Shown here: positions 28,864 to 62,134 of the stretch, in pieces | How positions within the stretch are numbered: the stretch's first letter is position 1 | How the letters are laid out: each line of letters starts with the position of its first letter | Origin: an uncultured Alkaliphilus sp. | GTDB taxonomy: Bacteria > Bacillota > Clostridia > Peptostreptococcales > Natronincolaceae | Length of the DNA: 64,000 nucleotides | Assembly: GCA_938074565.1 (NCBI GenBank) | Contig: CALJEQ010000012.1 | Coordinates: 13,247 to 77,246, forward strand | Reading direction: 5' to 3' | Made by a program: the position numbers and the translations under genes | The notes under the pieces: model-generated | Database searches by the model: none | The model's input: only the letters and a program-made list of their open reading frames with translations | Told to the model about the DNA's origin: nothing

Positions 28864-29685
28864 TTAACTAATTAATTTAGGATTTGGATAAATATTTATT
28901 ACCTGATCTTTTTCTTTTACTTCTTCTAAAACTAATAAAGATATATAGTCATTTATTAGTTTTACTTCTGGTTCTTTTGTTGCTATTAGAACACCTACAC
29001 CCTCCACGTGGGCATCAAATTCCCTCATCATATCTATTGTTCCTTTGGCAGTTCCTCCAGCCTTCATAAAATCATCAATAATAATAACCCTTGCGCCAGG
29101 CTTTATTGCCCTTCTAGACAAGGACATTCTTTGTAACTTTCCACTAGAACCAGATACATAGTTTATACTTACAGTAGAACCTTCTGTTACTTTATTATCT
29201 CTTCTTAAAATAACCAGTGGTAGATTCATAGCCTTAGCCACCATAAACGCCAATGGAATACCTTTTGTTTCTACAGTAATAATATAGTCTACATTTTTAT
29301 AGTTAAATTGACTGGCGAAAACCTCACCAATTCTATGTATAATATGGGGGGAATAAATAACATCTGTCATATACATAAACCCACCTGGTAGTATACGTTC
29401 ACCTTCACTTAATTTAATTGCTATTTCATTTAATATTTCTTTATTTTGTTCTATTGTGGTCTGTGGAATAAACTTCACACCACCTGCTGCACCTGAAAAA
29501 GTCTCTATTCTCCCTAACTCCATCTTTTCCATTGTTTGCTTAACAACAACAATATCTTCGCTGATTGTGGATTTTGCAGAGTTAAACTTTTCTGTGAAAA
29601 AATTTAGTGTAAATATTTTATTAGGCTGATCACTAAGGATTTTTACCATAGCAGCAATTCTTTCATTTCTCTTTAGTTTTCTCAT
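28864..29685 (-). CDS. purR: Pur operon repressor
   Basis: It has a PurR N-terminal winged helix (RNERIAAMVKILSDQPNKIFTLNFF) and a PRTase fold (VIIIDDFMKAGGT). The start is set at the ATG at 29685, with GGAGGAAGG upstream. The track start at 29703 overlaps that RBS. Confidence 0.9.
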   Translation of the reverse strand: MRKLKRNERIAAMVKILSDQPNKIFTLNFFTEKFNSAKSTISEDIVVVKQTMEKMELGRIETFSGAAGGVKFIPQTTIEQNKEILNEIAIKLSEGERILPGGFMYMTDVIYSPHIIHRIGEVFASQFNYKNVDYIITVETKGIPLAFMVAKAMNLPLVILRRDNKVTEGSTVSINYVSGSSGKLQRMSLSRRAIKPGARVIIIDDFMKAGGTAKGTIDMMREFDAHVEGVGVLIATKEPEVKLINDYISLLVLEEVKEKDQVINIYPNPKLIS

Positions 29686-29821
29686 AGCCTTCCTCCGTAA
29701 CATTATATTGTAAGTTAATATTTATTCATAAGTTTAATTAACAAAATTTATTAAAAAGTTTTTTCTATAATTCATTTTATTCTTTTTTACTGGCAATTTC
29801 AAGAAAAATGCTTATTTTCAT

Positions 29822-29846
29822 AAAAAAAAGCCGCCTTTTCGACGGA
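29822..29846 (-). terminator. Intrinsic terminator after the transglutaminase-like gene
   Basis: On the minus strand: CCGTCGAAAAGGCGG followed by CTTTTTTTT. Confidence 0.55.
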
Positions 29847-29856
29847 TAAATATTTA

Positions 29857-30657
29857 TTAGTATTCCCGATGTGGTTGGTATAATTCTGCATTCTTATATT
29901 TTGTTACATTCTGTTTTTTTTCTTTTAGTTGGGCATCATAGGATGTATCTATCGTTACCCACTGTTCTACACTTTTAATATATACTTGATTCCAAGCATG
30001 ATAATGGGTGATTCCAGGGGCATAGCCTTTGATCATTTTTGTAGGAATGTCTACACTTCTTAACATGGCTGCAAATAAGGAAGCATAATCATAACAGATG
30101 CCTTTTCCATTTTCTACAGTTTCATCAATATTTGGTAGGTATAAATTACTCAAATTATTAATTTTATCGTAGTCGTAACTAATGTTATCAATTATATAGT
30201 TATATATTGCATCTACCTTCTCTTCGTCCGATGCCAATGTCTTAGTTAGTTCTTTTGCTTTTTCAATAGCTTTACTAGAAGCATCCCAACTAATTTCTTG
30301 AATTGAATTAAGAAACACTTCATTTTCACCCTTTAATTCTATCTTTATGGTTTCTTTATATACCTCTCGATATTTATTTCCCTCAATATTCTCTAATATT
30401 TTCACTACATATTCTCCGCTACCCATTTGTAATGGAAATCTTTCCACCTCATTATTATTAATATTGTAGGTATAGCGTGAGCCTTCCTTTTCCACCAACA
30501 GACGAATTCTTGTATCTGTTGAAGCTTCATATTTAACTGCAATAACACCTTGATTTGCAAATTTACTATCTATGTATTTAGTTGCTGAATAGGAGATTGC
30601 AACTGTATTTGTTAGTATAACTAAGGTAAAAATAACAACGCTTATAATTTTTTTCAT
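29857..30657 (-). CDS. Secreted transglutaminase-like (Cys-His-Asp) domain protein
   Basis: GAAGGAGGG lies 7 nt upstream of the ATG. The signal peptide is MKKIISVVIFTLVILTNTVAISYSA. The transglutaminase-core motifs are GKGICYDYASLFAAMLRSVDIP (Cys), HAWNQVY (His) and VTIDTSYD (Asp). Confidence 0.75.
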   Translation of the reverse strand: MKKIISVVIFTLVILTNTVAISYSATKYIDSKFANQGVIAVKYEASTDTRIRLLVEKEGSRYTYNINNNEVERFPLQMGSGEYVVKILENIEGNKYREVYKETIKIELKGENEVFLNSIQEISWDASSKAIEKAKELTKTLASDEEKVDAIYNYIIDNISYDYDKINNLSNLYLPNIDETVENGKGICYDYASLFAAMLRSVDIPTKMIKGYAPGITHYHAWNQVYIKSVEQWVTIDTSYDAQLKEKKQNVTKYKNAELYQPHREY

Positions 30658-30669
30658 AGAAAAAACCCT

Positions 30670-30760
30670 CCTTCGGTAGCTCGGCTGCCATACTTTCGTA
30701 AGGCCCTATGGCTTTGCGTCCCATCGTTTCCAATGGTTTGCCTTTATCGGCGACAGGTTT
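30670..30760 (-). promoter_or_regulatory. c-di-GMP-I (GEMM-I) riboswitch aptamer in the 5' leader of the transglutaminase-like gene
   Basis: The minus strand reads CTGTCGCCGATAAAGGCAAACCATTGGAAACGATGGGACGCAAAGCCATAGGGCCTTACGAAAGTATGGCAGCCGAGCTACCGAAGGAGGG. This contains the invariant GEMM-I core: GGCAAACC, a hairpin with a GAAA tetraloop, then GGGACGCAAAGCC and a P3 hairpin (GCCATA...TATGGC). Compare the V. cholerae Vc2 sequence GGCAAACCAUUCGAAAGAGUGGGACGCAAAGCC. The aptamer ends about 15 nt before the RBS and I saw no terminator. Confidence 0.85.
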
Positions 30761-30847
30761 TTATCACCTTCACTGACTATTGTCTCTATTACTTACTATA
30801 TTTTTTATTCTATCATACATTAATATATTATATAAAACCTTTATATA

Positions 30848-31582
30848 TTACTGAACTTGAATAGCATGAATTATTAGTCGTTCTGTAGCTTTATATAAGG
30901 GGTGACAGGTAACTAATGTTAATATATGATCTTTATTATTATGATCAAGTACCGAAATATCCTCAGGTTCAACAATTATTTTTTTATAAATCTTATAATA
31001 ATAGGTTTTATTATCTGTTTCTATTACTATCTGATCCCCCACTTCCAGTTCATCCAACCTATTGAAAAAGCGTCCATTAGTATGACTTCTATGGCCTGCC
31101 AAAGCTACATTTCCCACTTCTCCTATCGCTGATGTCCCTTTTATTCGAGCAGCTCCTTTTTTAAGATTTTTTTCAGTTGCTCCTTCTAAAATTGGTAATT
31201 TAAGTTTTATTTTATCTATTTTAATAATACCTAATACCCCAGCCTTTTTAAGTTGTATTTCTTTTTCATCATCAGATACATTTTTCTTATTTAATTTACT
31301 GATTTTTGGCAATTTATCTTTGCTATCTTCTATTTCATTCTCTTCTTCAAATTCATCCTCTATTTTTATTCTACCTTCATCCTCTACTTTAAAGAATTGT
31401 TGTAGGCTTTTGTATTCAGTAATTGCAGCTCTATTATCTACTTCAATATAGTTATTTGTTATTTCCTTTTCATACTCCAAAAGAAGTTGCCGTTGCCAAT
31501 ACCATGTGTAGCCACGTTCCAATAAAGGGTATAAGATTATAAGTATTCCCATTATAATCACTACTATTGATAATTTCTTCAT
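30848..31582 (-). CDS. Sortase (membrane-anchored transpeptidase)
   Basis: It has an N-terminal TM helix (LSIVVIIMGILIILYPLL), the catalytic His region NVALAGHRSHTNGRFF, the catalytic Cys motif LTLVTCHP and a downstream Arg (TERLIIHA). GAAGGTGG serves as the RBS. Confidence 0.85.
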   Translation of the reverse strand: MKKLSIVVIIMGILIILYPLLERGYTWYWQRQLLLEYEKEITNNYIEVDNRAAITEYKSLQQFFKVEDEGRIKIEDEFEEENEIEDSKDKLPKISKLNKKNVSDDEKEIQLKKAGVLGIIKIDKIKLKLPILEGATEKNLKKGAARIKGTSAIGEVGNVALAGHRSHTNGRFFNRLDELEVGDQIVIETDNKTYYYKIYKKIIVEPEDISVLDHNNKDHILTLVTCHPLYKATERLIIHAIQVQ

Positions 31583-31605
31583 TTAACCACCTTCTTTATT
31601 AAAAT

Positions 31606-31631
31606 GGGCTAAGGAGAAATCCCCTCAGCCC
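31606..31631 (-). terminator. Stem-loop between adhesin and sortase genes (possible partial terminator or attenuator)
   Basis: On the minus strand: GGGCTGAGG-ggatttct-CCTTAGCCC (9 bp including one G-U pair), followed by ATTTTAATAAA, a weak U-tract. Confidence 0.4.
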
Positions 31632-31641
31632 TTATATAATA

Positions 31642-32802
31642 TTATTTTTTTCTTCTAAGTTTAATTCCTACTGCTGTAATCATTCCACCTAATCCATAGA
31701 AGAAGATGGGTGGTATTTCACCAGTTTTAGGAAGTTTTGTTGGTTCTTGCAATGCTTCTTCTTGTATTGTTATTTCTTCTTCATATTTTACTATATCTAC
31801 TTCTTCACTATCTTCTTCTACTTCTACTGGACCTAGTGGAATATCCTCATCTTCAATTTCTATTTCATCAACAATTTCATCTACTTCTGGTTCTGTTACT
31901 ATTGGATCTTCAACTGTTGTAACTGGCTGAGAATTAACAGGATAATCATCGAAAACTATTCCTGTAGGTGGTTGCTTTGGGGGCTGTGGTGTCTCTGGGT
32001 CAACTGGATCTTCCGGATCTTCTGGATCTTCTGGCTCCTCTGGATCTTCTGGTTCCTCTGGATCTTCTGGATCTTCTGGGTCCTCTGGATCTTCCGGTTC
32101 TATTACGGTAATTTTTTGATTTGTTACTGTTACTACAGCCCCTTGATTATTTCCATCTAGTGTTACTGTACTCGGTTGAATAGATAATAATCGATACCCT
32201 TCCATCGAACCTTCAGTAATTGCATATGCCCCCAATTGTAAATCATTTAAGATTATGGTCTGACTTCCTTTTATAGTAACGTTTTGTGAATAATCTATTC
32301 CTGTAACATTAATAATAAAATCCGTTTCATCATTAACTATTACTTCTTCATTTTCATCTATAAGTATCTTTCTCAGTGTTATACTACCCAAAACTGGCTG
32401 TGGTTTAGGAAGTTTATAATAGAAGGTTACATGACTTATTTGTGGTTGTTGTCCCCCTCTATTGTCAGGTGCCCTTAATCCATTACCCTCTGTAGCTCCT
32501 TCATATCCATATAAATATCCCCTACTACCAGCCTTAACAAATACATAGCTAACCGGAATATTAGAACTCCAATTAACATTTTTTTTGTCATTTGTAAAGT
32601 TAACAGTTACTGTGAAATCTCCATTTTTATAGGTTCCACTATTTGGGGGATCAATCTTATAATTAAGAAAGTCCACAAGGGTTGGGTCATTTCCTTCATA
32701 AAGTTGCGGTGCACCAACTACTGCAAAGGCCATCCAAGCAGTTCCTATAGTTAATAAAATTGTTAAAATTACTGCTGTCATTTTTCTAAAACCCATAAAC
32801 AT
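31642..32802 (-). CDS. LPKTG-anchored cell-wall surface protein with a Cna-B/SpaA-like (pilin-type) domain and an acidic Pro-rich stalk
   Basis: The start is revised to the ATG at 32802 (AGAGGAGAG upstream), because the track's upstream 35 codons overlie a riboswitch terminator. The signal peptide is MFMGFRKMTAVILTILLTIGTAWMAFA. The Cna-B-like domain has an E-box-like motif (GAYAITEGSMEGYRLL). The stalk is (PED/PEE) repeats. The C-terminal sorting signal is LPKTGE, a hydrophobic stretch IPPIFFYGLGGMITAVGI, then KLRRKK. Confidence 0.8.
   Translation of the reverse strand: MFMGFRKMTAVILTILLTIGTAWMAFAVVGAPQLYEGNDPTLVDFLNYKIDPPNSGTYKNGDFTVTVNFTNDKKNVNWSSNIPVSYVFVKAGSRGYLYGYEGATEGNGLRAPDNRGGQQPQISHVTFYYKLPKPQPVLGSITLRKILIDENEEVIVNDETDFIINVTGIDYSQNVTIKGSQTIILNDLQLGAYAITEGSMEGYRLLSIQPSTVTLDGNNQGAVVTVTNQKITVIEPEDPEDPEDPEDPEEPEDPEEPEDPEDPEDPVDPETPQPPKQPPTGIVFDDYPVNSQPVTTVEDPIVTEPEVDEIVDEIEIEDEDIPLGPVEVEEDSEEVDIVKYEEEITIQEEALQEPTKLPKTGEIPPIFFYGLGGMITAVGIKLRRKK
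32004..32098 (-). repeat. 9-bp tandem coding repeat (about 10 copies) encoding PEDPEDPEE...
   Basis: On the plus strand, tggatcttc / tggttcctc / tggctcctc units repeat head to tail, in frame within the adhesin gene. Confidence 0.8.
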
Positions 32803-32856
32803 TTTTCTTCTCTCCTCTCTTAACCTTACTTTCTTAATTCGTCGCATTTTATAGAC

Positions 32857-32965
32857 AAAAAAAGCCACCACAAATATATATGTGGCAGCTGGACGATCAT
32901 CATACACGAAATACCTTAGACTCCTAGCTTTGCGTCCCAGTCTTTCAACTGGTTTGCCTATTATT
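32857..32965 (-). promoter_or_regulatory. c-di-GMP-I (GEMM-I) riboswitch with an intrinsic-terminator expression platform, in the leader of the adhesin-sortase operon
   Basis: The minus strand reads AGGCAAACCAGTTGAAAGACTGGGACGCAAAGCTAGGAGTCTAAGG...GTCCAGCTGCCACATATATATTTGTGGTGGCTTTTTTTG. It has the same invariant core as the 30670-30760 element (GGCAAACC, GAAA-tetraloop hairpin, GGGACGCAAAGC) and a P3 of AGCTAGGA...TCCAGCT. A terminator hairpin GCCACA-tatatatt-TGTGGTGGC with T7 (32857-32889) follows, then an RBS and ATG about 55 nt downstream. Confidence 0.85.
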
Positions 32966-33185
32966 ATATTTCTATATTATTTCTAAAACATCCAATATTA
33001 TTACTACTTTTACTAATTTATCTATTTTAGTTATATTTATTAGTGTAACTCTTGTTTTTTTGTGTTATCATACTTTATAGAATGACATATTATTTATAAG
33101 TGATTATTTTTTTCCCAGAATGTCCATCATAGTAGTATAAAGTAAAAATAAATATATTTTAATTTATGTTAGAGGAGTGAAAAAT

Positions 33186-34583
33186 GTGCTATCTTTTAAA
33201 CTTGACCACCATTTACGTCATATACATTTAATTGGTATCGGTGGAATCAGTATGAGTGCTATTGCAGAAGTTTTACTAAAACATGGGTATCATGTTTCTG
33301 GTTCAGATATAAAAGACTCAAATATCCTTGAAAAATTAAGACAACATGGCGCTGAAATTTTTATTGGTCATCGTACCGAAAACATCAAAGATCCTGATTT
33401 AATTGTCTATACCGCTGCTGTTAAAGAAGACAACTGCGAAAGACAACAGGCTAAAAAGTTAGGCATCCATGAAATTGATCGAGCTGAAATGTTGGGCCTT
33501 ATTATGAAAAAATATAAAAAAGCCATTGCAGTTGCTGGTAGCCACGGTAAAACCACCACCACGTCATTATTGTCATTGGTATTGGAATATGCAAAACTAG
33601 ACCCCACAATTCTTGTGGGAGGAGAATTGGACGAAATAGGCGGGAATATTAAGATTGGTGAAAGTGAGCATTTTATTACGGAAGCTTGTGAATACGTAGA
33701 AAGTTTTTTAAAGTTTAATCCGTATATAGGAATAATACTTAACATTGATGAAGATCACCTTGATTATTATCGAGATATTAATCATATTAAAGACGCCTTT
33801 AGAAGTTTTGCTAAATTGATTCCTAAGGAAGGTTTTCTTATTGCTTCTCAAGATGATGCTAATGTAAGAGAAATATATGAAGGACTGGAATGTCAAATTG
33901 TTACCTACGGAATTAATGAACAATCGGATTTTACTGCAAAAAATATTACTTTTAATGCCAGCGGCTACCCATCTTTTACAGTAGAGTATAAAGGTGATAT
34001 AATTGGTAACTTTCAATTAAGCATACCAGGTATACATAATGTGTATAATTCTTTAGCATCTATTTCTACTGCCTATATTTTAGGAATTTCACCTGAAGAA
34101 ATTACTCAACATATAGGAATTTTCAAAGGAATACATCGTCGTTTTGACCTATTAGGAGAAGTTAAAGGGGCAAAAGTAATAGATGACTATGCCCACCATC
34201 CTGTTGAAATTAAAGCCACATTAGAGGCTGCAAAACAATATCCTCATAAGGAAATATGGTGTGTATTTCAACCCCATACCTATACCCGTACCATTGCATT
34301 ATTAAAAGACTTTGCTTTATCTTTTCATAATGCGGATCATGTTATTATTACAGATATATATGCTGCTAGAGAGAAGGATGAGGGTACTGTTCATAGTAGA
34401 CAACTGGCGGAACTTATAGAAAATCATACTGATGTTTCTTATATAAAGGATTTTGATGAGATTGCCGAGTTTATTTATGATCGTGTTCAACCAATGGACT
34501 TAATTATTACAATGGGTGCTGGGGACGTATATAGAATAGGTGATATATTATTAAACAAAAATAGAAATATTACCTATATTTAA
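33186..34583 (+). CDS. murC: UDP-N-acetylmuramate--L-alanine ligase
   Basis: The motifs [27 protein letters not shown] and DDYAHHP are present. The GTG at 33186 lies 8 nt after GGAG. The GTG at 33177 used in the track overlaps the SD and is less likely. Confidence 0.95.
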
Positions 34584-34656: not shown

Positions 34657-34696
34657 GAAAAGAGCAGAACCCACGAAAGGTTCTGCTCTTTTCTTT
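34657..34696. terminator. Bidirectional terminator between convergent murC and the LCP gene
   Basis: The hairpin is aaaagagcagaacc-cacgaaa-ggttctgctcttttc. Confidence 0.75.
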
Positions 34697-35726
34697 AGTT
34701 ATTTATCTCTTTTACTTCATCGTCAAATCTTTCAACTTCTTCAACTTCTTCACCTTCCGAATAAATCTTTATCAGTAGGTCTCTTGTCACCTGAATATCA
34801 TGTATATAGTATGAAACACCATTTCTATACTTATCTTCACCAGGTAACATATTCATATCTACTTCTTCAAGCTTTAACCCTACTGCTGCTGTAGCATATC
34901 TAACAACCTCTTGTAATTCCATATCAGTTCTAACATGTCTAAAAGCAGTTGTTGCCACTGTCGGAAGTCTAAAGCTTAAGGCTTTATTTATGGCAGCCTT
35001 CATAAAATTTTGTTGGGCTTTTATTCTACCTAAGTCCCCATCTACATAGGACATTGCTCCTGATCCATTAGTTCCTTTTCTGTATCTTAAGAACTTTACT
35101 CCATCTTCCCCGTTTAATACATGGTTTCCCGGTTCAAAGCGGATAATTAATGGTGGGTCATCAGCATAGTCTTCATACTTCATTAATCTTGGAATATGCA
35201 CTGGTACGCCACCAAGGGAATCAATAATAGAAGCTACTCCACTATAGGTTACTGTAATATAATGGTCTACAGGAACATCTAATAATAAATCACTAACTAC
35301 CGTTTTTACTCCTTTAGCCCCATGATCTCCATAAACTGAATTAATCTTTCTCTTGTCCAATCGATTATATCCTTCTCGGTGATAATAGGTATCTCTTGGT
35401 ATTGAAATAACATCTAATCGCTTGTTTTCGGGATTAAAAGAAACAAACATCATCGTATCACTTCTTGTTTCATCCAGTCCTAACAAAACCATATTAATTC
35501 TTGGACTAGACCTAACTAATCTTTTTAATAAGTCTTTTTCCAATGGATCTAGCTCTTCTTTTTCTTCTTCTTCCCATTCAACAGCTTTTGCTACTTCTGT
35601 ACCAGAATGATTATCCTTCATAAAACGATTGAAACTCCATACTATTCCTGAAAACAGTATAACAAAACATAAAAAAGCAATGGAGAAAATTTTAAATGTT
35701 TTCATTTTTCTTTTAAATGTTTTCAC
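34695..35726 (-). CDS. LytR-CpsA-Psr (LCP) family cell-wall polymer transferase
   Basis: It has an N-terminal TM helix and the LCP core INMVLLGLDETRSDTMMFVSFNPENKRLDVISIPRDTY. Confidence 0.85.
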   Translation of the reverse strand: MKTFKRKMKTFKIFSIAFLCFVILFSGIVWSFNRFMKDNHSGTEVAKAVEWEEEEKEELDPLEKDLLKRLVRSSPRINMVLLGLDETRSDTMMFVSFNPENKRLDVISIPRDTYYHREGYNRLDKRKINSVYGDHGAKGVKTVVSDLLLDVPVDHYITVTYSGVASIIDSLGGVPVHIPRLMKYEDYADDPPLIIRFEPGNHVLNGEDGVKFLRYRKGTNGSGAMSYVDGDLGRIKAQQNFMKAAINKALSFRLPTVATTAFRHVRTDMELQEVVRYATAAVGLKLEEVDMNMLPGEDKYRNGVSYYIHDIQVTRDLLIKIYSEGEEVEEVERFDDEVKEINN

Positions 35727-35882
35727 TTTTCCACTTCCCTATATTGGTTTGATCTGTGCTAATATAATTTATAGATTAATATCAATTACTCTTTGACTGT
35801 ACTCCTACTATTTTAACAAATATTTCGTTTAAAATCTATAGTAGTAACCAAACAGTAATAAAGTGGTAATATAGTATGCAAA

Positions 35883-38174
35883 TTATAGATATCGTTTTAG
35901 TAAAGTTCCTTTAAAATATTTAGTATAATAATATCTCCAAAGACCCATTTGTACTTTTACTTTGTTATCTACTAAAATTAAATAATTAAGGAAATCCTCT
36001 ATATTGGAAGTAGTAGTCTCTTTCCCCCCATACTTAACCCCTATAAATATTTCCGTCAGTTCTTCCAAAGTCCCATTATAATCATGTACCTTATACATAA
36101 TCCGTGGAACGTACTCATAGGGTGTCTCTCCTATTTCAATTGGGTAACCCATCTCTTTTAATAAGTCTAATAAATTTTGATAAATACAAGGAATAACACT
36201 GTTGTTATTATTTTCTTTTAGTTTTTTATAATACTTTTGTATATCTAAATAGATGTAGCCCACCCTTAATAGGATAATTCCAATAAGTAAAATATAAATT
36301 AACTTGGGTACTATCTTAACTATTTTAATAGCATGTTTAGAAAGAACATCCTCTTGGTATGCTTTTAAAGGTACTTGTACTCCATCTTCTTTAGTATCTT
36401 CAATGTTATGGGAATTATTCCCTAAATTTGTCTGTAAATTCCCTGGCATTTGCTCCAATTCATCAAAACTAGATTCAGGATCTTCATTGTTGTTAATATC
36501 TGTATCTAAATTCCGCAACGTGGTAGGTTGAAAGGCTGGTGTAGCTTCAAAACTTAACCATCCCATAGGTTCTATATATGCCTCTACCCAAGCATGGGCA
36601 TTATTTTGCCTAACCTCATAAACATTATCATTATTTTCCATAGGCATACGGTAACCCTCCACATATCTTGAGGGAATACCTTGTGTCCGTAATAAAATTG
36701 CCATTGCAGTAGCAAAATATGTGCAATAACCTTCTTTTTCCTCAAACAAGAAATACTCAATAAATTCTTTTCCCTGTGGGGTAACTGAAGGCTCTAATGT
36801 ATAGACATAATTATCCCTTAAAAAGTTCCCTATTGCTTCTGCTTTTTCATAAGGGCTGTATTTATCACGGGTTATTTTATTAGCTAATTGGGTCACCTTT
36901 GGCGAAAGTCCCTGTGGTAGTTGTAGATAACCCTCACTTATATTAGCCCATATTTTTTCATTTTCCTCAATATCTATTGGGTTAATATAGGGTATAATTG
37001 CCTGTACTGTATATCCTTCATTTTTGTATGTTGTATTTTGTTGGATCAATTGAAAGTTTTCATCAACGGTTAAATTACCCGAAGTACTTGAGACTATTCT
37101 CACAGGTTGATATGGTGTAAATATTGTAGAAGATGCCATATTGACGTTAGTAATTTCTAATTCTACAATAGTCCCCCTCAATACCTCCCTCGGTAGTACC
37201 TGTTTAACATTGTAATTCATCTGAACTACAGTCCCTCTTTCCCAACGATTATTTTCATAAAGAGTCTTCACATTGCCCCTTAGGTATAGGGAATAGGGGG
37301 ATTTAACAAGCATCACCAATCGGTCACTGGGGCGAACTGGTCCACCCAACTCGGTTGGGTCTAGTTGGAACCCTGTCTGGTGAAAGTCAAACATACTCCC
37401 TTGAGCATAGCTTCTACTATAAACTAAATCGTCTCTAAAGCCCATAATCACAGGAAATCGGCTAGTCAATTGGCTTTCTAACCAATACCAATTTATTAAA
37501 TTGCTTCTCTTTGGCATAACTACAGCTAATAACACAATTATCAGTCCGTAAATAAAGGCAGTTCTAACCCATGAAGAATGTATATCATGTTTATAGGTTA
37601 TTTTATTCTGTAACCATTTTTTTTCTGCGTTAAAATACCCTTGTCTTCCCAATAAAACAAAATAGATTATGATAAAAAATATCATCATAGGATAAGCTTC
37701 ATCCACATAAATATACCAATAATAAATAAAACCTGGCATGTATAAGGGTATTAACAGCACCACCTGTTTAATTTTTATCACAACAAACCAGGTTAATATA
37801 CATAGACCAAAGGTAAGTAAGCCCCAAAACCCTGTACGATTTTGTATTAGTATTTGTTCTGTTCCTTTAAAGTAAATCATTATATTTACAATAAACTGTT
37901 TAATCCATAAAATACAATTCCAGACCAATTCTGAATGATAGCGATTTAAAATTAATAATGGAATTATTGACGTGATTATTGATAACAAAAAAAAGAATGG
38001 GTAACTAAATAATAAATGTACCACTAACCCCACTAAAGCAGTAATCAGTAAACGTGCTAATAAGTTTAATTCCACTGCCAATAGAGGCCCCCATATGTTA
38101 CTAATGGAGAATACAATAAATATATATAATGCCATATTTTTTAGTAGTTCTTTATTGCTACGTTCTATTTTCAT
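35883..38174 (-). CDS. Polytopic membrane protein with an extracytoplasmic transglutaminase-like domain (TgpA-like)
   Basis: About 6 N-terminal TM helices are followed by the transglutaminase core EGYCTYFATAMAILLRTQGIPSRYVEGY...NAHAWVEAY...WLSFEATP and a C-terminal TM. The start is set at the ATG at 38174 (GGAGGAGA upstream), overlapping the DUF58 gene by 17 nt. Confidence 0.8.
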   Translation of the reverse strand: MKIERSNKELLKNMALYIFIVFSISNIWGPLLAVELNLLARLLITALVGLVVHLLFSYPFFFLLSIITSIIPLLILNRYHSELVWNCILWIKQFIVNIMIYFKGTEQILIQNRTGFWGLLTFGLCILTWFVVIKIKQVVLLIPLYMPGFIYYWYIYVDEAYPMMIFFIIIYFVLLGRQGYFNAEKKWLQNKITYKHDIHSSWVRTAFIYGLIIVLLAVVMPKRSNLINWYWLESQLTSRFPVIMGFRDDLVYSRSYAQGSMFDFHQTGFQLDPTELGGPVRPSDRLVMLVKSPYSLYLRGNVKTLYENNRWERGTVVQMNYNVKQVLPREVLRGTIVELEITNVNMASSTIFTPYQPVRIVSSTSGNLTVDENFQLIQQNTTYKNEGYTVQAIIPYINPIDIEENEKIWANISEGYLQLPQGLSPKVTQLANKITRDKYSPYEKAEAIGNFLRDNYVYTLEPSVTPQGKEFIEYFLFEEKEGYCTYFATAMAILLRTQGIPSRYVEGYRMPMENNDNVYEVRQNNAHAWVEAYIEPMGWLSFEATPAFQPTTLRNLDTDINNNEDPESSFDELEQMPGNLQTNLGNNSHNIEDTKEDGVQVPLKAYQEDVLSKHAIKIVKIVPKLIYILLIGIILLRVGYIYLDIQKYYKKLKENNNNSVIPCIYQNLLDLLKEMGYPIEIGETPYEYVPRIMYKVHDYNGTLEELTEIFIGVKYGGKETTTSNIEDFLNYLILVDNKVKVQMGLWRYYYTKYFKGTLLKRYL

Positions 38175-39336
38175 ATTTCTCCTCCAAAACATTTTTAATG
38201 TCCTGTTTTGCCTCTATCATATAAGTTATGACATTTTCATTTTTTAATATCTTAGAAATTTCTTTATTCTTTTTCCATGTAACCTCGTCGGTTTCTTCAT
38301 CCCCCAGTACAATATACCTCGGCTGTAAATTTTTCATTTTTAGTCTAATACCTTCTGCCCCTAGATTACTATCTAATAATGGGGTTATTAAATACAAGGT
38401 ACTACCTTGCTTAATTTTAGAGGTTAAATTACCTACATATTGACTATAACTGTCTTCTCCTGTTGTTTGAAATACTACCATTTCCTCCATAAATAACTTT
38501 AAATATCCATAGTGATTACCTGATACTTCTATGGTCTCTTTTTTGTGTTGATAATATAAAGTAACCTTTACGTTCTTTTGTAGAAAATGTTGTGCTAAAG
38601 AAATAACTACTTCTACTGCTTTATCCTCTATCCATCTATTATAATCTTTTTTATAGTTGTCAGAAGAACTGTCTAATATAATCACTACTTCTTGATTCCC
38701 TTCCTCTTCATATTGTTTTACCACAAGGGAATCTTTTTTAGCAGATGCCTTCCAGTGAATTTTTTTGAAGGAGTCTCCTTCTTGATACTCTCTTAATTCA
38801 GAAAAATAATAAAAATCTTGGCTAGTGTCAATAAAAATATTATACAATGGTATAATCTGTGGATATACTTTCAGAGCTATTGGGGTATCTATAATTTTTT
38901 TTAAAGAAAATATATTAAATATATCTTTTATATCGACTTTAATTTCTCCAATTTGATATATTCCTCTACGTCGGCAAACCACCGTAGTTTCAGCCCAAAT
39001 ACTTTCTTTAGCCTTTAATGAATATACCCTCGTTTGTTCTGCTTCTCCTGTTAATTTTAAGGCTAAACTATTTTCTACTTCTAATCGAGGAAAGTTAATA
39101 ATAAGAGGGTTTTCTATCTCATATGTGATTTTAATTTCTTCACCTGTCACCAGCTCTTTTTCTGGTATTCTAATTTTTCCACTAAGATATAGTTTTCCAC
39201 ATAAACAGTGGATGTAGGGAATTATAAGGGTAAACAAAAAAACATACAGTAAGAAATAGGGTAGCTTACCCCCCACCAAAATTCCAAAAGGGATAATTAG
39301 CAAACCTAAAATAATTAATAATAGTTTAGTTTTCAA
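38158..39336 (-). CDS. DUF58-family protein (vWA-like, MoxR-associated)
   Basis: It has two N-terminal TM helices and the DUF58 signature LREYQEGDSFKKIHWKASAKKDSLVVKQYEEE. It overlaps the moxR stop by 11 nt. Confidence 0.8.
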   Translation of the reverse strand: MKTKLLLIILGLLIIPFGILVGGKLPYFLLYVFLFTLIIPYIHCLCGKLYLSGKIRIPEKELVTGEEIKITYEIENPLIINFPRLEVENSLALKLTGEAEQTRVYSLKAKESIWAETTVVCRRRGIYQIGEIKVDIKDIFNIFSLKKIIDTPIALKVYPQIIPLYNIFIDTSQDFYYFSELREYQEGDSFKKIHWKASAKKDSLVVKQYEEEGNQEVVIILDSSSDNYKKDYNRWIEDKAVEVVISLAQHFLQKNVKVTLYYQHKKETIEVSGNHYGYLKLFMEEMVVFQTTGEDSYSQYVGNLTSKIKQGSTLYLITPLLDSNLGAEGIRLKMKNLQPRYIVLGDEETDEVTWKKNKEISKILKNENVITYMIEAKQDIKNVLEEKYENRT

Positions 39337-56183: not shown

Positions 56184-56443
56184 CTTTTTTTACATAAATT
56201 GGAATTAATTTTTTATCCATTTTTATTTTTTCCACTTATTATCAATTATATTCATTTTTGTTAGTTATTATTACTTCCTTGTTATTATTGTCGATTTCCT
56301 GGGAAATATATCATTTTATATTACTTTACTCATAGAAATTATTGGTATATTAAGTTATATTTACAACATACTAATAAAGTTGATATAATTAAGTTAATGT
56401 ATTCTAATTCTACTTAAAATAACAATTAATTTTGGAGGTGCTT

Positions 56444-57754
56444 ATGAAACTAAAAAGAGTATTACTGCTAAGCCTTTCTGTTATAATGTTTATGTTCTTT
56501 GTTTCGTTTATATCCTTCGGTAACTCTTATACTCCTGTGTCAATAAAGATATTTCTTAACCAAAAACAATTAGTATTTGATGTACCACCTATAAATATTG
56601 ATAATAGAATTCTTGTACCTGTGGGATCTATTTTGAGATCTATGGGAGCAGATGTTTTATGGGATAGTTCAAAAAAACTTGTCACTGCATCAAAAGGAGA
56701 CTTAACCGTCATTATTCCCATTAACAGCAATACAGCCGTTAGAAATAATACATCTGTTAAATTAGATGTGCCTGCAAAAATTATTAGTGGACGTACCTTC
56801 GTTCCCTTTAGGTTTCTTTCTGAAAGTTTAGGTGCTAAAGTCCACTATGATAGTATTAATAAATCAATATTTATAACCAGTGAAGAAAATTCTTTTTCCT
56901 TTAAGGGACTTAGTTTAGGTTCCTCTTTAGAAGAGGTTTCTAAGGTGTTGGGTAAACCTAAACGTATTGATATAAGTGAGTATGACTTTAAATGGTATAT
57001 CTACCATGATAATTATAAAAATTATGTTCAAGTAGGTATACGAAATAATATTGTTGTTGCCATTTATAGCAACAACCCTCTATGGGTCAATGAAAATGGT
57101 ATTAATGTTGGGTCTAGCAAAAAAGCCGTAGCTTCCTCACTAACCAAACCTTTAGATAAGATTTTGAAGGGAAACATTTACTATTCGCTTGCCCGTTTTA
57201 AAGATGGTGAAGAATATCAAGTACATCAATTAGATAATTCTTACTTAACTATCTTTTATGATCTTCATCGTAACCATCAGGTAACTGCTCTACAAATAGT
57301 AGATAAGAGTATTGAAGAAAAATATCGTAGACATTTGAATACTTCCACCGAGCTAAAAAAAGCCTATGAGAGACAGGTTTTTGACTTAGCCAATGCCCTA
57401 AGAGTACGGGAAGGTCTACAACCTTTTATATGGTGTGATTTAGCATCAATATCTGCTGAAAAACATAGTAAGGATATGGCTATTAATAAATATTTTAATC
57501 ATAATAGTTTAGAAGGTATAAGTCCCTTTGATCGAATGAAAAAAGAAGGAATTACTTATCGTTTGGCAGGAGAAAACATTGCAGCAGGTCAACAAAATGC
57601 CATATTTGCCCACGAAGGATGGTTAAATTCATTTACTGGGCATCGGGAAGCCATCATGGGTAGATACCAAAGATTAGGTGTTGGTGTTTGGTTTGGAGAC
57701 GATAAAGCAGAGTATAATAATTATTATACACAAAATTTTTATACTCCTTTTTAA
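56444..57754 (+). CDS. Secreted protein with a copper-amine-oxidase-like stalk domain and a C-terminal CAP/SCP (YkwD-like) domain
   Basis: The ATG at 56444 has GGAGGTG upstream; the track uses a TTG 4 codons earlier. It has a signal/TM segment, a stalk domain (LVFDVPPINIDNRILVPVGSILRSMGADVLWD...GRTFVPFRFLSESLGAKVHYD) and a CAP domain (AEKHSKDMAINKYFNHNS...GENIAAGQQNAIFAHEGWLNSFTGHREAIM). Confidence 0.8.
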   Translation: MKLKRVLLLSLSVIMFMFFVSFISFGNSYTPVSIKIFLNQKQLVFDVPPINIDNRILVPVGSILRSMGADVLWDSSKKLVTASKGDLTVIIPINSNTAVRNNTSVKLDVPAKIISGRTFVPFRFLSESLGAKVHYDSINKSIFITSEENSFSFKGLSLGSSLEEVSKVLGKPKRIDISEYDFKWYIYHDNYKNYVQVGIRNNIVVAIYSNNPLWVNENGINVGSSKKAVASSLTKPLDKILKGNIYYSLARFKDGEEYQVHQLDNSYLTIFYDLHRNHQVTALQIVDKSIEEKYRRHLNTSTELKKAYERQVFDLANALRVREGLQPFIWCDLASISAEKHSKDMAINKYFNHNSLEGISPFDRMKKEGITYRLAGENIAAGQQNAIFAHEGWLNSFTGHREAIMGRYQRLGVGVWFGDDKAEYNNYYTQNFYTPF

Positions 57755-57766
57755 TTTAAAATCTAA

Positions 57767-57794
57767 AGCCCAGCGAAACATCGCTGGGCTATTT
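57767..57794. terminator. Bidirectional terminator between convergent CAP-domain and HD-GYP genes
   Basis: The hairpin is aAGCCCAGCGaaacatCGCTGGGCTatttt. Confidence 0.75.
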
Positions 57795-58948
57795 TAAACA
57801 AAGTCTACTATTTGTATAGATGAATTTTTAGGACTACATAGGTCTAGTAAATCTCCAGTTTCTTCTAACTTAACAACAGGGCGATATATGTTTTGCTTAG
57901 CCACATAAACAATTTCTGCTATTCTCTCATCATTTAGTTTTACGTTTTGTCCAATAAAACAATTTCCGATACGATTTAAGAAAACATAAAGAATTTTTGA
58001 ATCTAACTTATTAACATACTCTGTTTCTAATATCTTTATAGCTTCAAAAGGTGATTTTTTACTGCGATAAGGTCGATGGGAAGTTAAAGCATTGTATACA
58101 TCAGCAATGGCAATAATCTTCGCCATTAAAGGTATTTTATCCCCCTTCAAACCCATAGGGTATCCAGTTCCGTCCATTCTTTCATGGTGCAGTAAAACAG
58201 CTTGTTTAATATCTTCACTGATAAAGTCATACTTTTTAATCATATCATGGCTATATATAGCATGTTTTTGACATTCCAATAATTCGTCATTGTTAATTTT
58301 CTGTGCTTTATTAAGTATATTACTAGGTATCTTCATTTTCCCTATATCTATTAACATAGCACAAATCACTAAAGATTGCAGTACATCTTCTTTTAGTCCT
58401 AACCATTTACCAATGGAATGACTAATTACCATTACATTTTGACTATGGGCATAAGTGACATCGTCTAAGTCCTTCATTTTTTCCAATAATTGAAAAACAT
58501 TTATACTTCCTTTAAAACTTTGTAAAGTTTTATCAATATTGTTTTTAATTTGATCTTTAGTTACCCCATTACCCTTTAATATTACATCAAAATCTTTTCG
58601 GATACTCTTCTGGTTAACTATAAACTCTTGTCTAAAGGAAGCAATTTCTTCTTCTCTTCTAATTTCGTTTAAATGTTTCTCAACTTTAGAAAAATCTCCA
58701 CTTTCCTCTATTTCGCTAAAATCTATTATTTCAGTTTCTTCTACTGCTTCTTCTACTACTTTAACTTTAACAAACATAATATTATGTTGTTGCAGTATAT
58801 TTTTTATTTTATCCAAATCAACTACTTCAGTGTTGGCTGGAATTAAAACGTTCCCAAATTTATTAATAACATCATCAAATATTTCCATTCCCTTTAATAA
58901 TTTACCTACAGCAACTTCTTTGTATTCCCTCTTTAATAAACCTGTCAC
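57794..58948 (-). CDS. HD-GYP domain protein (c-di-GMP phosphodiesterase family) with a non-canonical N-terminal domain
   Basis: The HD motif region is YAHSQNVMVISHSIG...MLIDIGK. The HHE...GYP signature is LLHHERMDGTGYPMGLKG. Confidence 0.85.
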   Translation of the reverse strand: MTGLLKREYKEVAVGKLLKGMEIFDDVINKFGNVLIPANTEVVDLDKIKNILQQHNIMFVKVKVVEEAVEETEIIDFSEIEESGDFSKVEKHLNEIRREEEIASFRQEFIVNQKSIRKDFDVILKGNGVTKDQIKNNIDKTLQSFKGSINVFQLLEKMKDLDDVTYAHSQNVMVISHSIGKWLGLKEDVLQSLVICAMLIDIGKMKIPSNILNKAQKINNDELLECQKHAIYSHDMIKKYDFISEDIKQAVLLHHERMDGTGYPMGLKGDKIPLMAKIIAIADVYNALTSHRPYRSKKSPFEAIKILETEYVNKLDSKILYVFLNRIGNCFIGQNVKLNDERIAEIVYVAKQNIYRPVVKLEETGDLLDLCSPKNSSIQIVDFV

Positions 58949-61789: not shown

Positions 61790-62050
61790 AAAAAACCCCG
61801 CCCCTAAATATAGGGACGAGGATTAGCTCGTGTTACCACCCTAGTTCATTATCGTCTTACAAACAATAAACTCGTTAAGTGAAGATCCTTCACTTTGCTT
61901 AGCTAACGGAAGCAACTCCGTTATGACCTTAGGCATTAATCCCTCAGCCATAAAGTTCAGGGGCCATCTTCAGAAAATTTTAACAGTGCCGGCTTTCACC
62001 TATCCCAGCTCTCTTTTAACTGTTTCTATTGTCCTACTCTTCCCATCATT
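61790..62050 (-). promoter_or_regulatory. T-box leader (Met specifier) controlling metG
   Basis: The minus strand shows stem I elements AGAGAG...GGTGAAAG and a specifier-loop ATG followed by G (61951-61949). The conserved T-box sequence AATGAACTAGGGTGGTAACACG is at 61850-61829. The terminator CCTCGTCCCTA-tatt-TAGGGGCGGGG with TTTTTT is at 61821-61788. Confidence 0.85.
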
Positions 62051-62134
62051 ACTTGTTTAAGTATTAATATAATATAGTATTATACTTCAATATATATAAT
62101 TATACATGATTTGTCAACTGATAAATTATTAATT

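Follow-up and report, generated by a model that had tools for sequence, protein, structure and literature searches.

Gene content of the module

We analysed a 64,000-nucleotide stretch of contig CALJEQ010000012.1 (positions 13,247 to 77,246; assembly GCA_938074565.1) from an uncultured Alkaliphilus sp., hereafter called the window. Three consecutive genes of its minus strand code for a surface protein with an LPKTG sorting signal, a sortase and a secreted transglutaminase-fold enzyme. Two riboswitch aptamers for cyclic di-GMP of class I (c-di-GMP-I, or GEMM-I) precede, respectively, the gene of the surface protein and that of the enzyme. For comparison, we used 80 loci encoding homologues of the enzyme (labelled L with a number), on which the locus counts below are based.

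The surface-protein gene (31642..32802, minus strand) starts with an ATG at 32802 preceded by the Shine-Dalgarno sequence GAGAGGAGAG, and its product has 386 residues. From the N- to the C-terminus, the protein is composed of a signal peptide, an N-domain (residues 32-132), a beta-rich domain, an acidic stalk of PED repeats, an EDIPLG sequence (residues 319-324) and, at residue 357, the LPKTG motif, followed by a hydrophobic stretch and RRKK. The sorting signal LPKTGEIPPIFFYGLGGMITAVGIKLRRKK scores 18.6 with TIGR01167 for a cut-off of 15.9, and the LPKTG anchoring that the initial annotation had proposed thus stands. The Cna-B/pilin-like nature ascribed to the same protein is weakly supported: no pilin motif was found in its sequence, the beta-rich domain reaches 25.1 bits with DUF7601, below the cut-off of 27, and the sortase remains below the class C cut-off. 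A pilus reading was ruled out from the missing motif and the sortase score. The N-domain is rare, with only three homologues found, and hardly any homologues exist for the ectodomain as a whole.

The sortase gene (30848..31582, minus strand) follows. Its 244-residue product matches PF04203 (E = 3.1e-35) and harbours an N-terminal transmembrane anchor and the catalytic motifs LAGHR and TLVTCHP, in agreement with the initial assignment of a sortase gene beside the adhesin gene. Its scores with the NCBIfam class models are all sub-threshold (class C, 140.6 for a cut-off of 160; class E, 120.1 for 160; class D, 97.5 for 165). Between the adhesin and sortase genes lies a GC-rich, terminator-like hairpin of 11 pairs (31606..31631, minus strand), and the intergenic region folds at -21.1 kcal/mol. 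A strong hairpin, often with a U-rich tail, is present at the same position in all 10 of the other loci examined (L003, L005, L007, L009, L010, L015, L019, L045, L053 and L070). It is probably an attenuator or incomplete terminator by which the ratio of adhesin to sortase is set.

The third gene (29857..30657, minus strand) codes for a protein of 266 residues that matches PF01841, Transglut_core (E = 5.8e-23; 81.7 bits for a cut-off of 23). It is composed of a signal peptide, an Ig/FN3-like beta-sandwich (residues ~26-106) and a core with Cys188, His220 and Asp237, three residues that are invariant in 25 homologues. The secreted protein with an intact Cys-His-Asp core that had been annotated at this position is therefore confirmed. 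The transcription unit is closed by a terminator before purR (29823..29845, minus strand; CCGTCGAAAAGGCGG then T8).

An AlphaFold2 model of the enzyme (pLDDT 82.6) has the Ig/FN3-like beta-sandwich followed by the transglutaminase core. Its Foldseek matches include 3ISR and 3KD4, two uncharacterized 'putative cysteine proteases', the streptococcal transglutaminase-like proteins 4XZ7 and 9CRN, and TG2. LapG is among them as a remote match (E = 7e-5 to 8e-4), and so is the pseudomurein endoisopeptidase PeiP. A sequence search of the PDB yielded only remote transglutaminase-like matches, and NCBIfam provided no informative name.

A profile search of 1.84 billion representatives, with clusters defined at 50% identity, collected 1104 clusters of the enzyme family at E<=1e-30. 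Many full-length homologues of ~266 residues are found in Clostridia and Paenibacillus. Variants of the enzyme module were observed among homologues P0204, P0246, P0051 and P0103. They comprise a C-terminal fusion to an SdrD_B x4 / DUF7507 / SpaA stalk, a form with SLH domains, and forms with an N-terminal transmembrane anchor and a ~190-residue disordered linker rich in Pro, Ala, Ser and Glu. Together with the signal peptide, the anchors, SLH domains and stalk of these variants place the enzyme at the cell surface.

Identity of the two aptamers

An Rfam cmscan of the whole window at gathering thresholds returned three matches, namely a T-box leader far from the module and two minus-strand members of the c-di-GMP-I clan. 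Aptamer 1 (32881..32968) matches the full-length RF01051 model with 77.6 bits (cut-off 35; E = 1.6e-13) and has the GAAA tetraloop and GGGACGCAAAGC. Aptamer 2 (30671..30751) was reported with 63.5 bits (cut-off 59) under RF03167, which belongs to the same clan, CL00126, as RF01051; two weaker matches of this clan were dropped by clan competition. The initial annotation had read two GEMM-I cores on this strand and had named a covariance-model search as the test that could refute them. Both leaders score above the gathering thresholds, and the ligand-contact bases G20, A47 and C92 are present in both aptamers (AGGCAAACC, GACGCAAAGC and GCUGCC/GCUACC, respectively), as is the GAAA loop.

The c-di-GMP-I-GGC variant described by RF03167 is characterized by a G replacing A at position 47 (GACGCGAAG). 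Aptamer 2 harbours the canonical A47 (GACGCAAAGC), and GACGCAAAG, with the canonical A at the variant-defining position, is found in the window and in all 21 aligned aptamers. The ligand specificity of the GGC variant was therefore ruled out. By its sequence, aptamer 2 is an ordinary c-di-GMP-I aptamer that scores better on the shorter variant model RF03167. Related enzyme-type aptamers have RF01051 scores of 58-80 bits. We also built a covariance model, R1, with 21 aptamers that Rfam had detected in the window and nine of the loci, and searched it against all loci; aptamer 2, itself among the building sequences, scores 91.6 bits with it. As a side observation, Rfam clan competition tags many enzyme-type aptamers (window 30671-30751; L002-L081) as c-di-GMP-I-GGC RF03167. 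All of these have the canonical A (GACGCAAAG), and automated annotation would give them the wrong ligand class.

In an alignment of 67 leaders, 92.7% of the cells of the aptamer helices are paired, versus 82.6% in shuffles, and controls with a slid register are all far lower. All six pairs of the first hairpin, P2, show changes on both sides among the relatives.

The adhesin leader has a terminator-overlap architecture

Aptamer 1 overlaps an intrinsic terminator (32856..32890 including the U-run, hairpin 32890..32863, minus strand), for which the terminator scan gave 10 pairs, an 8-nt loop and a T-run. The 5' arm of the hairpin, AGCUGCCACA, is made up of the 3' strand of P3, the ligand-contact C and the 3' strand of P1 of the aptamer. 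The 3' arm, UGUGGUGGCU, is followed by U7. With overlapping arms, the aptamer and terminator folds are mutually exclusive. Minimum free energy (MFE) folding of the leader yields the complete terminator, with loss of P3 (-32.1 kcal/mol, versus -29.7 kcal/mol with the aptamer enforced). The terminator borrows its 5' arm from the 3' strand of the aptamer, and bound ligand would therefore be expected to prevent termination. Such an overlap was predicted to raise expression with ligand (Weinberg 2007, PMC1950547), the same design was described for Bc3-5 (PMC4759541), and that of Bc2-cap is an ON switch by experiment (PMC4933901). From this architecture, we infer that the adhesin leader is an ON switch.

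The same overlapping terminator was detected in about a dozen related leaders. The aptamers located 5' of LPXTG genes end in ...GACUGCCAUGA or a variant thereof, and the exact complement with a U-run occurs a few bases further on. Aptamer 1 clusters with those of the LPXTG-gene leaders of L003, L009, L015, L017, L040, L045, L048 and others. The mean duplex energy of the 3' arm with downstream sequence is -14.9 kcal/mol for the adhesin type, versus -7.0 kcal/mol for the enzyme type. In the set of 80 loci, linked adhesins often bear an ON-type aptamer, and c-di-GMP aptamers of class II precede the adhesin gene in some other loci.

The first riboswitch had been proposed to govern an operon of adhesin and sortase. 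This assignment is supported by architecture for the adhesin and is uncertain for the sortase, which may not follow the first riboswitch because the conserved hairpin separates the two genes. In addition, many sortase-enzyme pairs have neither an adhesin gene nor an upstream riboswitch.

The enzyme leader contains a P1 extension predicted to sequester the Shine-Dalgarno sequence

Aptamer 2 ends 13 nt before the ATG of the enzyme gene (30657). This interval corresponds to a Shine-Dalgarno sequence and a U-run, GAGGGUUUUUUCU (30658..30670, minus strand; read from the sequence). On the other side of the aptamer, the anti-Shine-Dalgarno sequence AAAAACCUGUC (30752..30762, minus strand) can pair with GAGGGUUUUU. 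The resulting P1 extension, P0, associates AAAAACCUgUC with GAGGGUUUUU in a duplex of -8.8 kcal/mol (z -1.66), the Shine-Dalgarno sequence and U-run forming its 3' strand.

Comparison of the loci revealed that ~8 nt located 5' of enzyme-type aptamers are complementary to the Shine-Dalgarno stretch. The paired sequences are AACUUUUC with GGAGAGUU in Clostridia and AAAGCUU with GAGUUUU in Paenibacillus. The order ACCGAAr-GGAG(AG)-U-run-ATG, ~13 nt in all, is kept in nearly all loci. In the 67 aligned leaders, P0 is 84.5% paired, and five of its eight pairs have changed on both sides (e.g. CG:35, AU:18, GU:4).

Tandem or triple aptamers are found in 50 loci. The duplex between the two flanks is similar in proximal enzyme-type aptamers (-8.6 kcal/mol, median z -2.2, n=74) and in distal ones (-7.4 kcal/mol, z -2.3, n=52), and is much weaker in adhesin-type aptamers (-3.3 kcal/mol, z ~0, n=24). 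In the distal copies of tandem loci, the same flank pairing is followed by a U-tract, GAGAAGUUUUUGUUUUU or AGGCUUUUUUUG, with at least 6 U in the next 8 nt for 94% of them. None of the 128 enzyme-type aptamers passes the test for a terminator overlapping the aptamer.

Since P0 would stack coaxially on P1 and enclose the aptamer, ligand could only favour it and would stabilise the sequestration of the Shine-Dalgarno sequence. In the distal copies of relatives, P0 and the U-tract would act as a ligand-promoted terminator. We infer that the enzyme-type elements, if they regulate at all, are OFF switches, translational for the proximal copies and transcriptional for the distal ones. The initial annotation had predicted two differently built expression platforms, as is the case (a terminator at 32890..32863 with its U-run, versus an aptamer ending 13 nt before the ATG). 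The architectures also support the oppositely acting switches that it had evoked, with terminator overlap indicative of ON control, and OFF control suggested by a P1 extension that either masks the Shine-Dalgarno sequence or is followed by a U-tract.

The terminator scan of the window detected no terminator between the sortase gene and aptamer 2. The OFF switch of the enzyme leader would thus also silence transcripts reading through from the adhesin-sortase genes. A promoter-like site (TTTATA, 18 nt, TG-TAGAAT; 30807..30836, minus strand) was found in this region by consensus scan only; it could drive the enzyme gene at low c-di-GMP.

The window has one enzyme-type aptamer where most relatives have two, and its P0 helix is imperfect. 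These features might indicate that one or both aptamers have decayed or are non-regulatory and that the genes are constitutive. We consider this very improbable, as both aptamers are full-length, score high and keep every conserved core base, both expression platforms are intact, and a single aptamer is also found in about a third of the loci. The latter observation further opposes the idea, which we ruled out, that the adhesin and sortase genes were inserted into an ancestral aptamer tandem; aptamer 1 belongs to a separate, ON-type subclass common to other adhesin leaders.

Other arrangements were noted among the loci. Orphan OFF-type aptamers with P0 and a U-tract but no enzyme gene after them are found at L005:2305-2386, L004:2951-3033 and L039:4118-4193. 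The L005 orphan is followed by two c-di-GMP-II aptamers (2616 and 2703) and a gene for a 1293-residue LPKTG protein. These orphans may provide combined OFF/ON control or be remnants. A third aptamer subclass, CUUGAAAAAGGC...GGGUUGCCrGU, precedes the enzyme gene at L027:6361-6679, L068:7658-7942 and L080:65-372. Their platform is of another kind, with a terminator hairpin of its own downstream of the distal copy.

Conservation of the riboswitch-enzyme unit and its genetic environment

Searches with model R1 identified 154 aptamers in the loci, every one on the strand of the enzyme gene. An OFF-type c-di-GMP-I aptamer directly precedes the enzyme gene in 76 of the 80 loci. Neighbouring genes were counted where the upstream flank reached 3 kb or more, in 68 loci, which were annotated with the window proteins and a sorting-signal pattern. 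A sortase gene lies directly upstream of the enzyme gene, on the same strand, in 38 loci, and a gene for an LPXTG protein lies upstream in 26, with one or the other found in 50 of the 68. Sortase or LPXTG genes lie within a few kb of the enzyme gene in 55 loci. 'MPPTG' sorting signals detected in Paenibacillus belong to lysyl-tRNA synthetase; they are false positives of the pattern and were kept out of the counts. Co-conservation of the genes, the lack of which had been named beforehand as refuting, is thus supported by the aptamer (76/80 loci) and by the sortase and/or LPXTG genes (50/68).

The riboswitch-enzyme unit, usually next to a sortase gene and often next to genes of LPXTG proteins, recurs in Clostridia and Paenibacillus. 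The order of conservation is riboswitch and enzyme first, then sortase, then LPXTG substrates. Many genomes have a sortase-enzyme pair without adhesin and without a riboswitch upstream of the pair.

The module of the window is flanked by purR (28864..29703) and murC (33177..34583), as initially annotated. The proposed insertion between these genes is not supported, because L002, L009 and L019 have the module in the same murC...purR-spoVG-glmU context; the module is ancestral at this position rather than a recent insertion.

Many Paenibacillus genomes have only the core of sortase, riboswitch and enzyme, with lysS or glycosyltransferase genes on one side and an rRNA operon on the other. This operon comes shortly after the enzyme gene in L025 (16S from L025:9348), L029, L033, L034, L036, L038, L040, L043 and other Paenibacillus loci, and many of these assemblies break ~300-1200 bp past the enzyme gene. 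Upstream, lysS or a gene for a large membrane glycosyltransferase with GT2 and GtrA-like genes is found, then the sortase gene.

These environments raise the question of whether the enzyme acts on sortase substrates at all. It might instead remodel the wall or peptidoglycan, or serve as an extracellular protease of the planktonic state, its position resulting from the clustering of c-di-GMP-regulated surface genes. The 13 loci of the 68 that have no sortase or LPXTG gene nearby, most of which keep the riboswitch, fit such a role, as do the glycosyltransferase/GtrA-like genes and the rRNA operon next to the Paenibacillus enzyme genes and the presence of PeiP among the fold matches. Nevertheless, a same-strand sortase gene is found directly upstream in 38 of the 68 loci and in distant genera, which far exceeds what chance would give with a few copies of this gene per genome, and the enzyme module is fused to an adhesin-type SdrD_B/SpaA stalk in one of its variants. 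A function unrelated to sortase substrates therefore seems doubtful to us, if less so than the other alternatives.

A candidate recognition motif in the linked LPXTG proteins

The PEDPED stalk of the adhesin had been suggested as the target of cleavage or cross-linking. Neither the ectodomains nor the stalks of the linked LPXTG proteins are related to one another, and the stalks consist of low-complexity repeats such as PT, DP or GGS; the PEDPED stalk is not conserved among the loci, and we rejected it as a conserved target.

The linked LPXTG proteins share an acidic motif, [DE][DE]-[IVT]-P-[LQ..]-[GAS], with the core E-[IV]-P-[LQ]-G, which is often repeated. Although the motif was defined after inspecting the very proteins in which it was counted, it occurs 33 times in the last 120 residues of 38 LPXTG proteins, versus once in their remainder. 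In other ORFs, we found 7 occurrences in 298,000 residues. It ends 0-6 residues before LPXTG in 20 of the 38 proteins. The copy of the window, EDIPLG, lies 38 residues before LPKTG. We propose E-[IV]-P-[LQ]-G only as a candidate recognition site.

An enzyme acting on the anchored proteins could also cooperate with the adhesin. As a true transglutaminase or maturation factor, it would cross-link or process the anchored protein or the matrix, and its riboswitch would be ON or neutral. The transglutaminase core with its intact triad is compatible with such an activity. Real or putative transglutaminases (4XZ7, 9CRN and TG2) are among the closest relatives of solved structure, and the enzyme gene closely follows the sortase gene on the same strand. 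Several features speak against it: the P1 extension encloses the aptamer, such that ligand cannot open it; an overlapping terminator is found in 0 of the 128 enzyme-type leaders; and in tandem loci the sortase gene is immediately followed by a distal copy of the OFF type with its U-tract. The acidic motif has Leu in alternation with Gln and hence no invariant Gln that could serve as donor. We regard cooperation as unlikely.

A putative attach/release circuit

Together, the genes of this module suggest an attach/release circuit for sortase-anchored proteins. With a probability of roughly 55%, we favour reciprocal control of this cell-surface module by c-di-GMP, in which the enzyme would act on sortase-anchored proteins at low c-di-GMP. 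At high c-di-GMP, the adhesin would be made and anchored. At low c-di-GMP, the enzyme would be made and would act at the wall, most likely by proteolytic release or trimming near the anchor, with E-[IV]-P-[LQ]-G as the candidate site.

A number of points weigh against this reciprocal control. The case is computational throughout, and the ON/OFF polarity of both leaders was read from sequence only. The P0 helix of the window has a bulge and a mismatch, with a z score of only -1.66. Because MFE folding of the window's enzyme leader gave no P0, the case for this helix rests on comparative evidence; its covariation is mostly between two clades and thus represents few independent events. The sortase may be expressed at a lower level or be only partly under the first riboswitch. 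As for the gene neighbourhoods, sortase and LPXTG genes are absent from the vicinity in 13 of 68 loci, in many Paenibacillus loci the sortase and enzyme genes have no LPXTG gene beside them, and in eight loci with LPXTG adhesins no riboswitch precedes the adhesin gene. The acidic motif, in addition to its definition after inspection, may belong to an extended sorting signal. Lastly, the transglutaminase fold seen in the model does not separate a protease from an isopeptidase, a cross-linker or a deamidase.

More tentatively, the enzyme family might represent a general 'anti-sortase', i.e. a c-di-GMP-repressed hydrolase paired with a sortase that strips anchored proteins as c-di-GMP falls. It would cut at the acidic motif next to LPXTG or hydrolyse the amide bond between Thr and peptidoglycan. 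Its riboswitches would be built in a way of their own: stabilised by ligand and enclosing the aptamer, the P1 extension would serve directly as terminator or as sequestrator of the Shine-Dalgarno sequence. We consider this generalization possible, less probable than reciprocal control of the module.

Very few Gram-positive systems for the removal of covalently anchored wall proteins have been worked out in detail, chiefly that of PPEP-1 in C. difficile. The enzyme family, with its ~1100 clusters, is a candidate for a second solution, as its genes almost always follow predicted OFF switches for c-di-GMP and usually neighbour a sortase gene. The locus also provides what appears to be a natural pair of ON and OFF class I c-di-GMP riboswitches. 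The compact OFF design, with the P1 extension as sequestrator or terminator, could serve studies of riboswitch mechanisms and the construction of sensors.

Other features of the window

The HD-GYP assignment previously made in the window holds at the level of the domain: the protein encoded at 57794..58948 (minus strand) has an HD_5 domain of the HD-GYP type. Its gene adjoins another (56432..57754, plus strand) whose secreted product has Cu_amine_oxidN1, CAP_assoc_N and CAP domains. Just past murC, the region 34695-38192 (minus strand) codes for a 343-residue LytR-CpsA-Psr protein and a 769-residue TgpA/YebA-like membrane transglutaminase. The latter, with its TgpA_N, Transglut_core and DUF4129 domains, is a second, different transglutaminase-fold protein of the window. 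The T-box leader is full-length (RF00230, 108.5 bits; 61809-62058, minus strand) and unrelated to the module.

Comparison with known systems

The initial annotation had presented the module as an undescribed variant of attach/release logic. The association itself is not new: 'transglutaminase-like cysteine protease' (COG1305) genes were listed with GEMM in 2007 (PMC1950547), and in a 2025 survey of contiguous riboswitches they were enriched among the targets of Bacillota tandem aptamers (PMC12452182). Unlike the present analysis, these reports provide gene lists only. In the searchable literature, we found no description, beyond such lists, of the polarity, the expression platform or the sortase/LPXTG link of the enzyme-type switches.

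LapG, which cleaves LapA-type adhesins at a di-alanine motif, is a member of the BTLCP family, which we take to be PF06035, and the Pfam scan listed no BTLCP model for the window enzyme. In the LapA/LapG/LapD system of Pseudomonas, c-di-GMP decides on the removal of an adhesin by a transglutaminase-like cysteine protease (PMC3032545). The window shares with it a transglutaminase-like enzyme within a c-di-GMP-dependent adhesin logic, and LapG is among the fold matches of the enzyme. In contrast, LapG operates in a Gram-negative periplasm, where LapD controls it post-translationally, whereas control in the window would be exerted by riboswitches, the adhesin is sortase-anchored, the enzyme matches PF01841 and the organism is a Gram-positive without LapD. 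The resemblance to LapG is thus one of logic, not of family membership.

The adhesin half of the module is an ordinary further member of the Bc2/Bc3-5 kind. Like Bc2-cap and Bc3-5-cspABCDE of B. thuringiensis, it combines a class I switch of the ON type (predicted, in the window), a terminator that covers the ligand-contact C, P1 and part of P3, and a wall-anchored product (PMC4933901, PMC4759541). It differs in that no OFF-controlled enzyme was described with Bc2 or Bc3-5; the tandem copies are of the ON type there and of the predicted OFF type in the enzyme loci.

The closest parallel to the proposed circuit is found in C. difficile. The sortase substrates CD2831 and CD3246 are turned ON via the c-di-GMP-II riboswitches Cdi-2-3 and Cdi-2-1, respectively, and ZmpI/PPEP-1, which cleaves them, is turned OFF via the c-di-GMP-I riboswitch Cdi-1-12 (PMC6200980). 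Both cases involve Firmicutes, riboswitch-induced sortase-anchored proteins and a riboswitch-repressed secreted enzyme, the polarities in the window being predicted, and both have candidate recognition motifs in the stalk by the anchor. The analogy is functional only: the window enzyme is a transglutaminase-fold Cys-His-Asp protein rather than a zinc metalloprotease, and Pfam and NCBIfam scans detected no metalloprotease domain of the HEXXH type (PPEP-1/Zmp1). Unlike in C. difficile, both switches of the window belong to class I, and the enzyme is paired with the sortase itself, usually behind tandem aptamers of the predicted OFF type.

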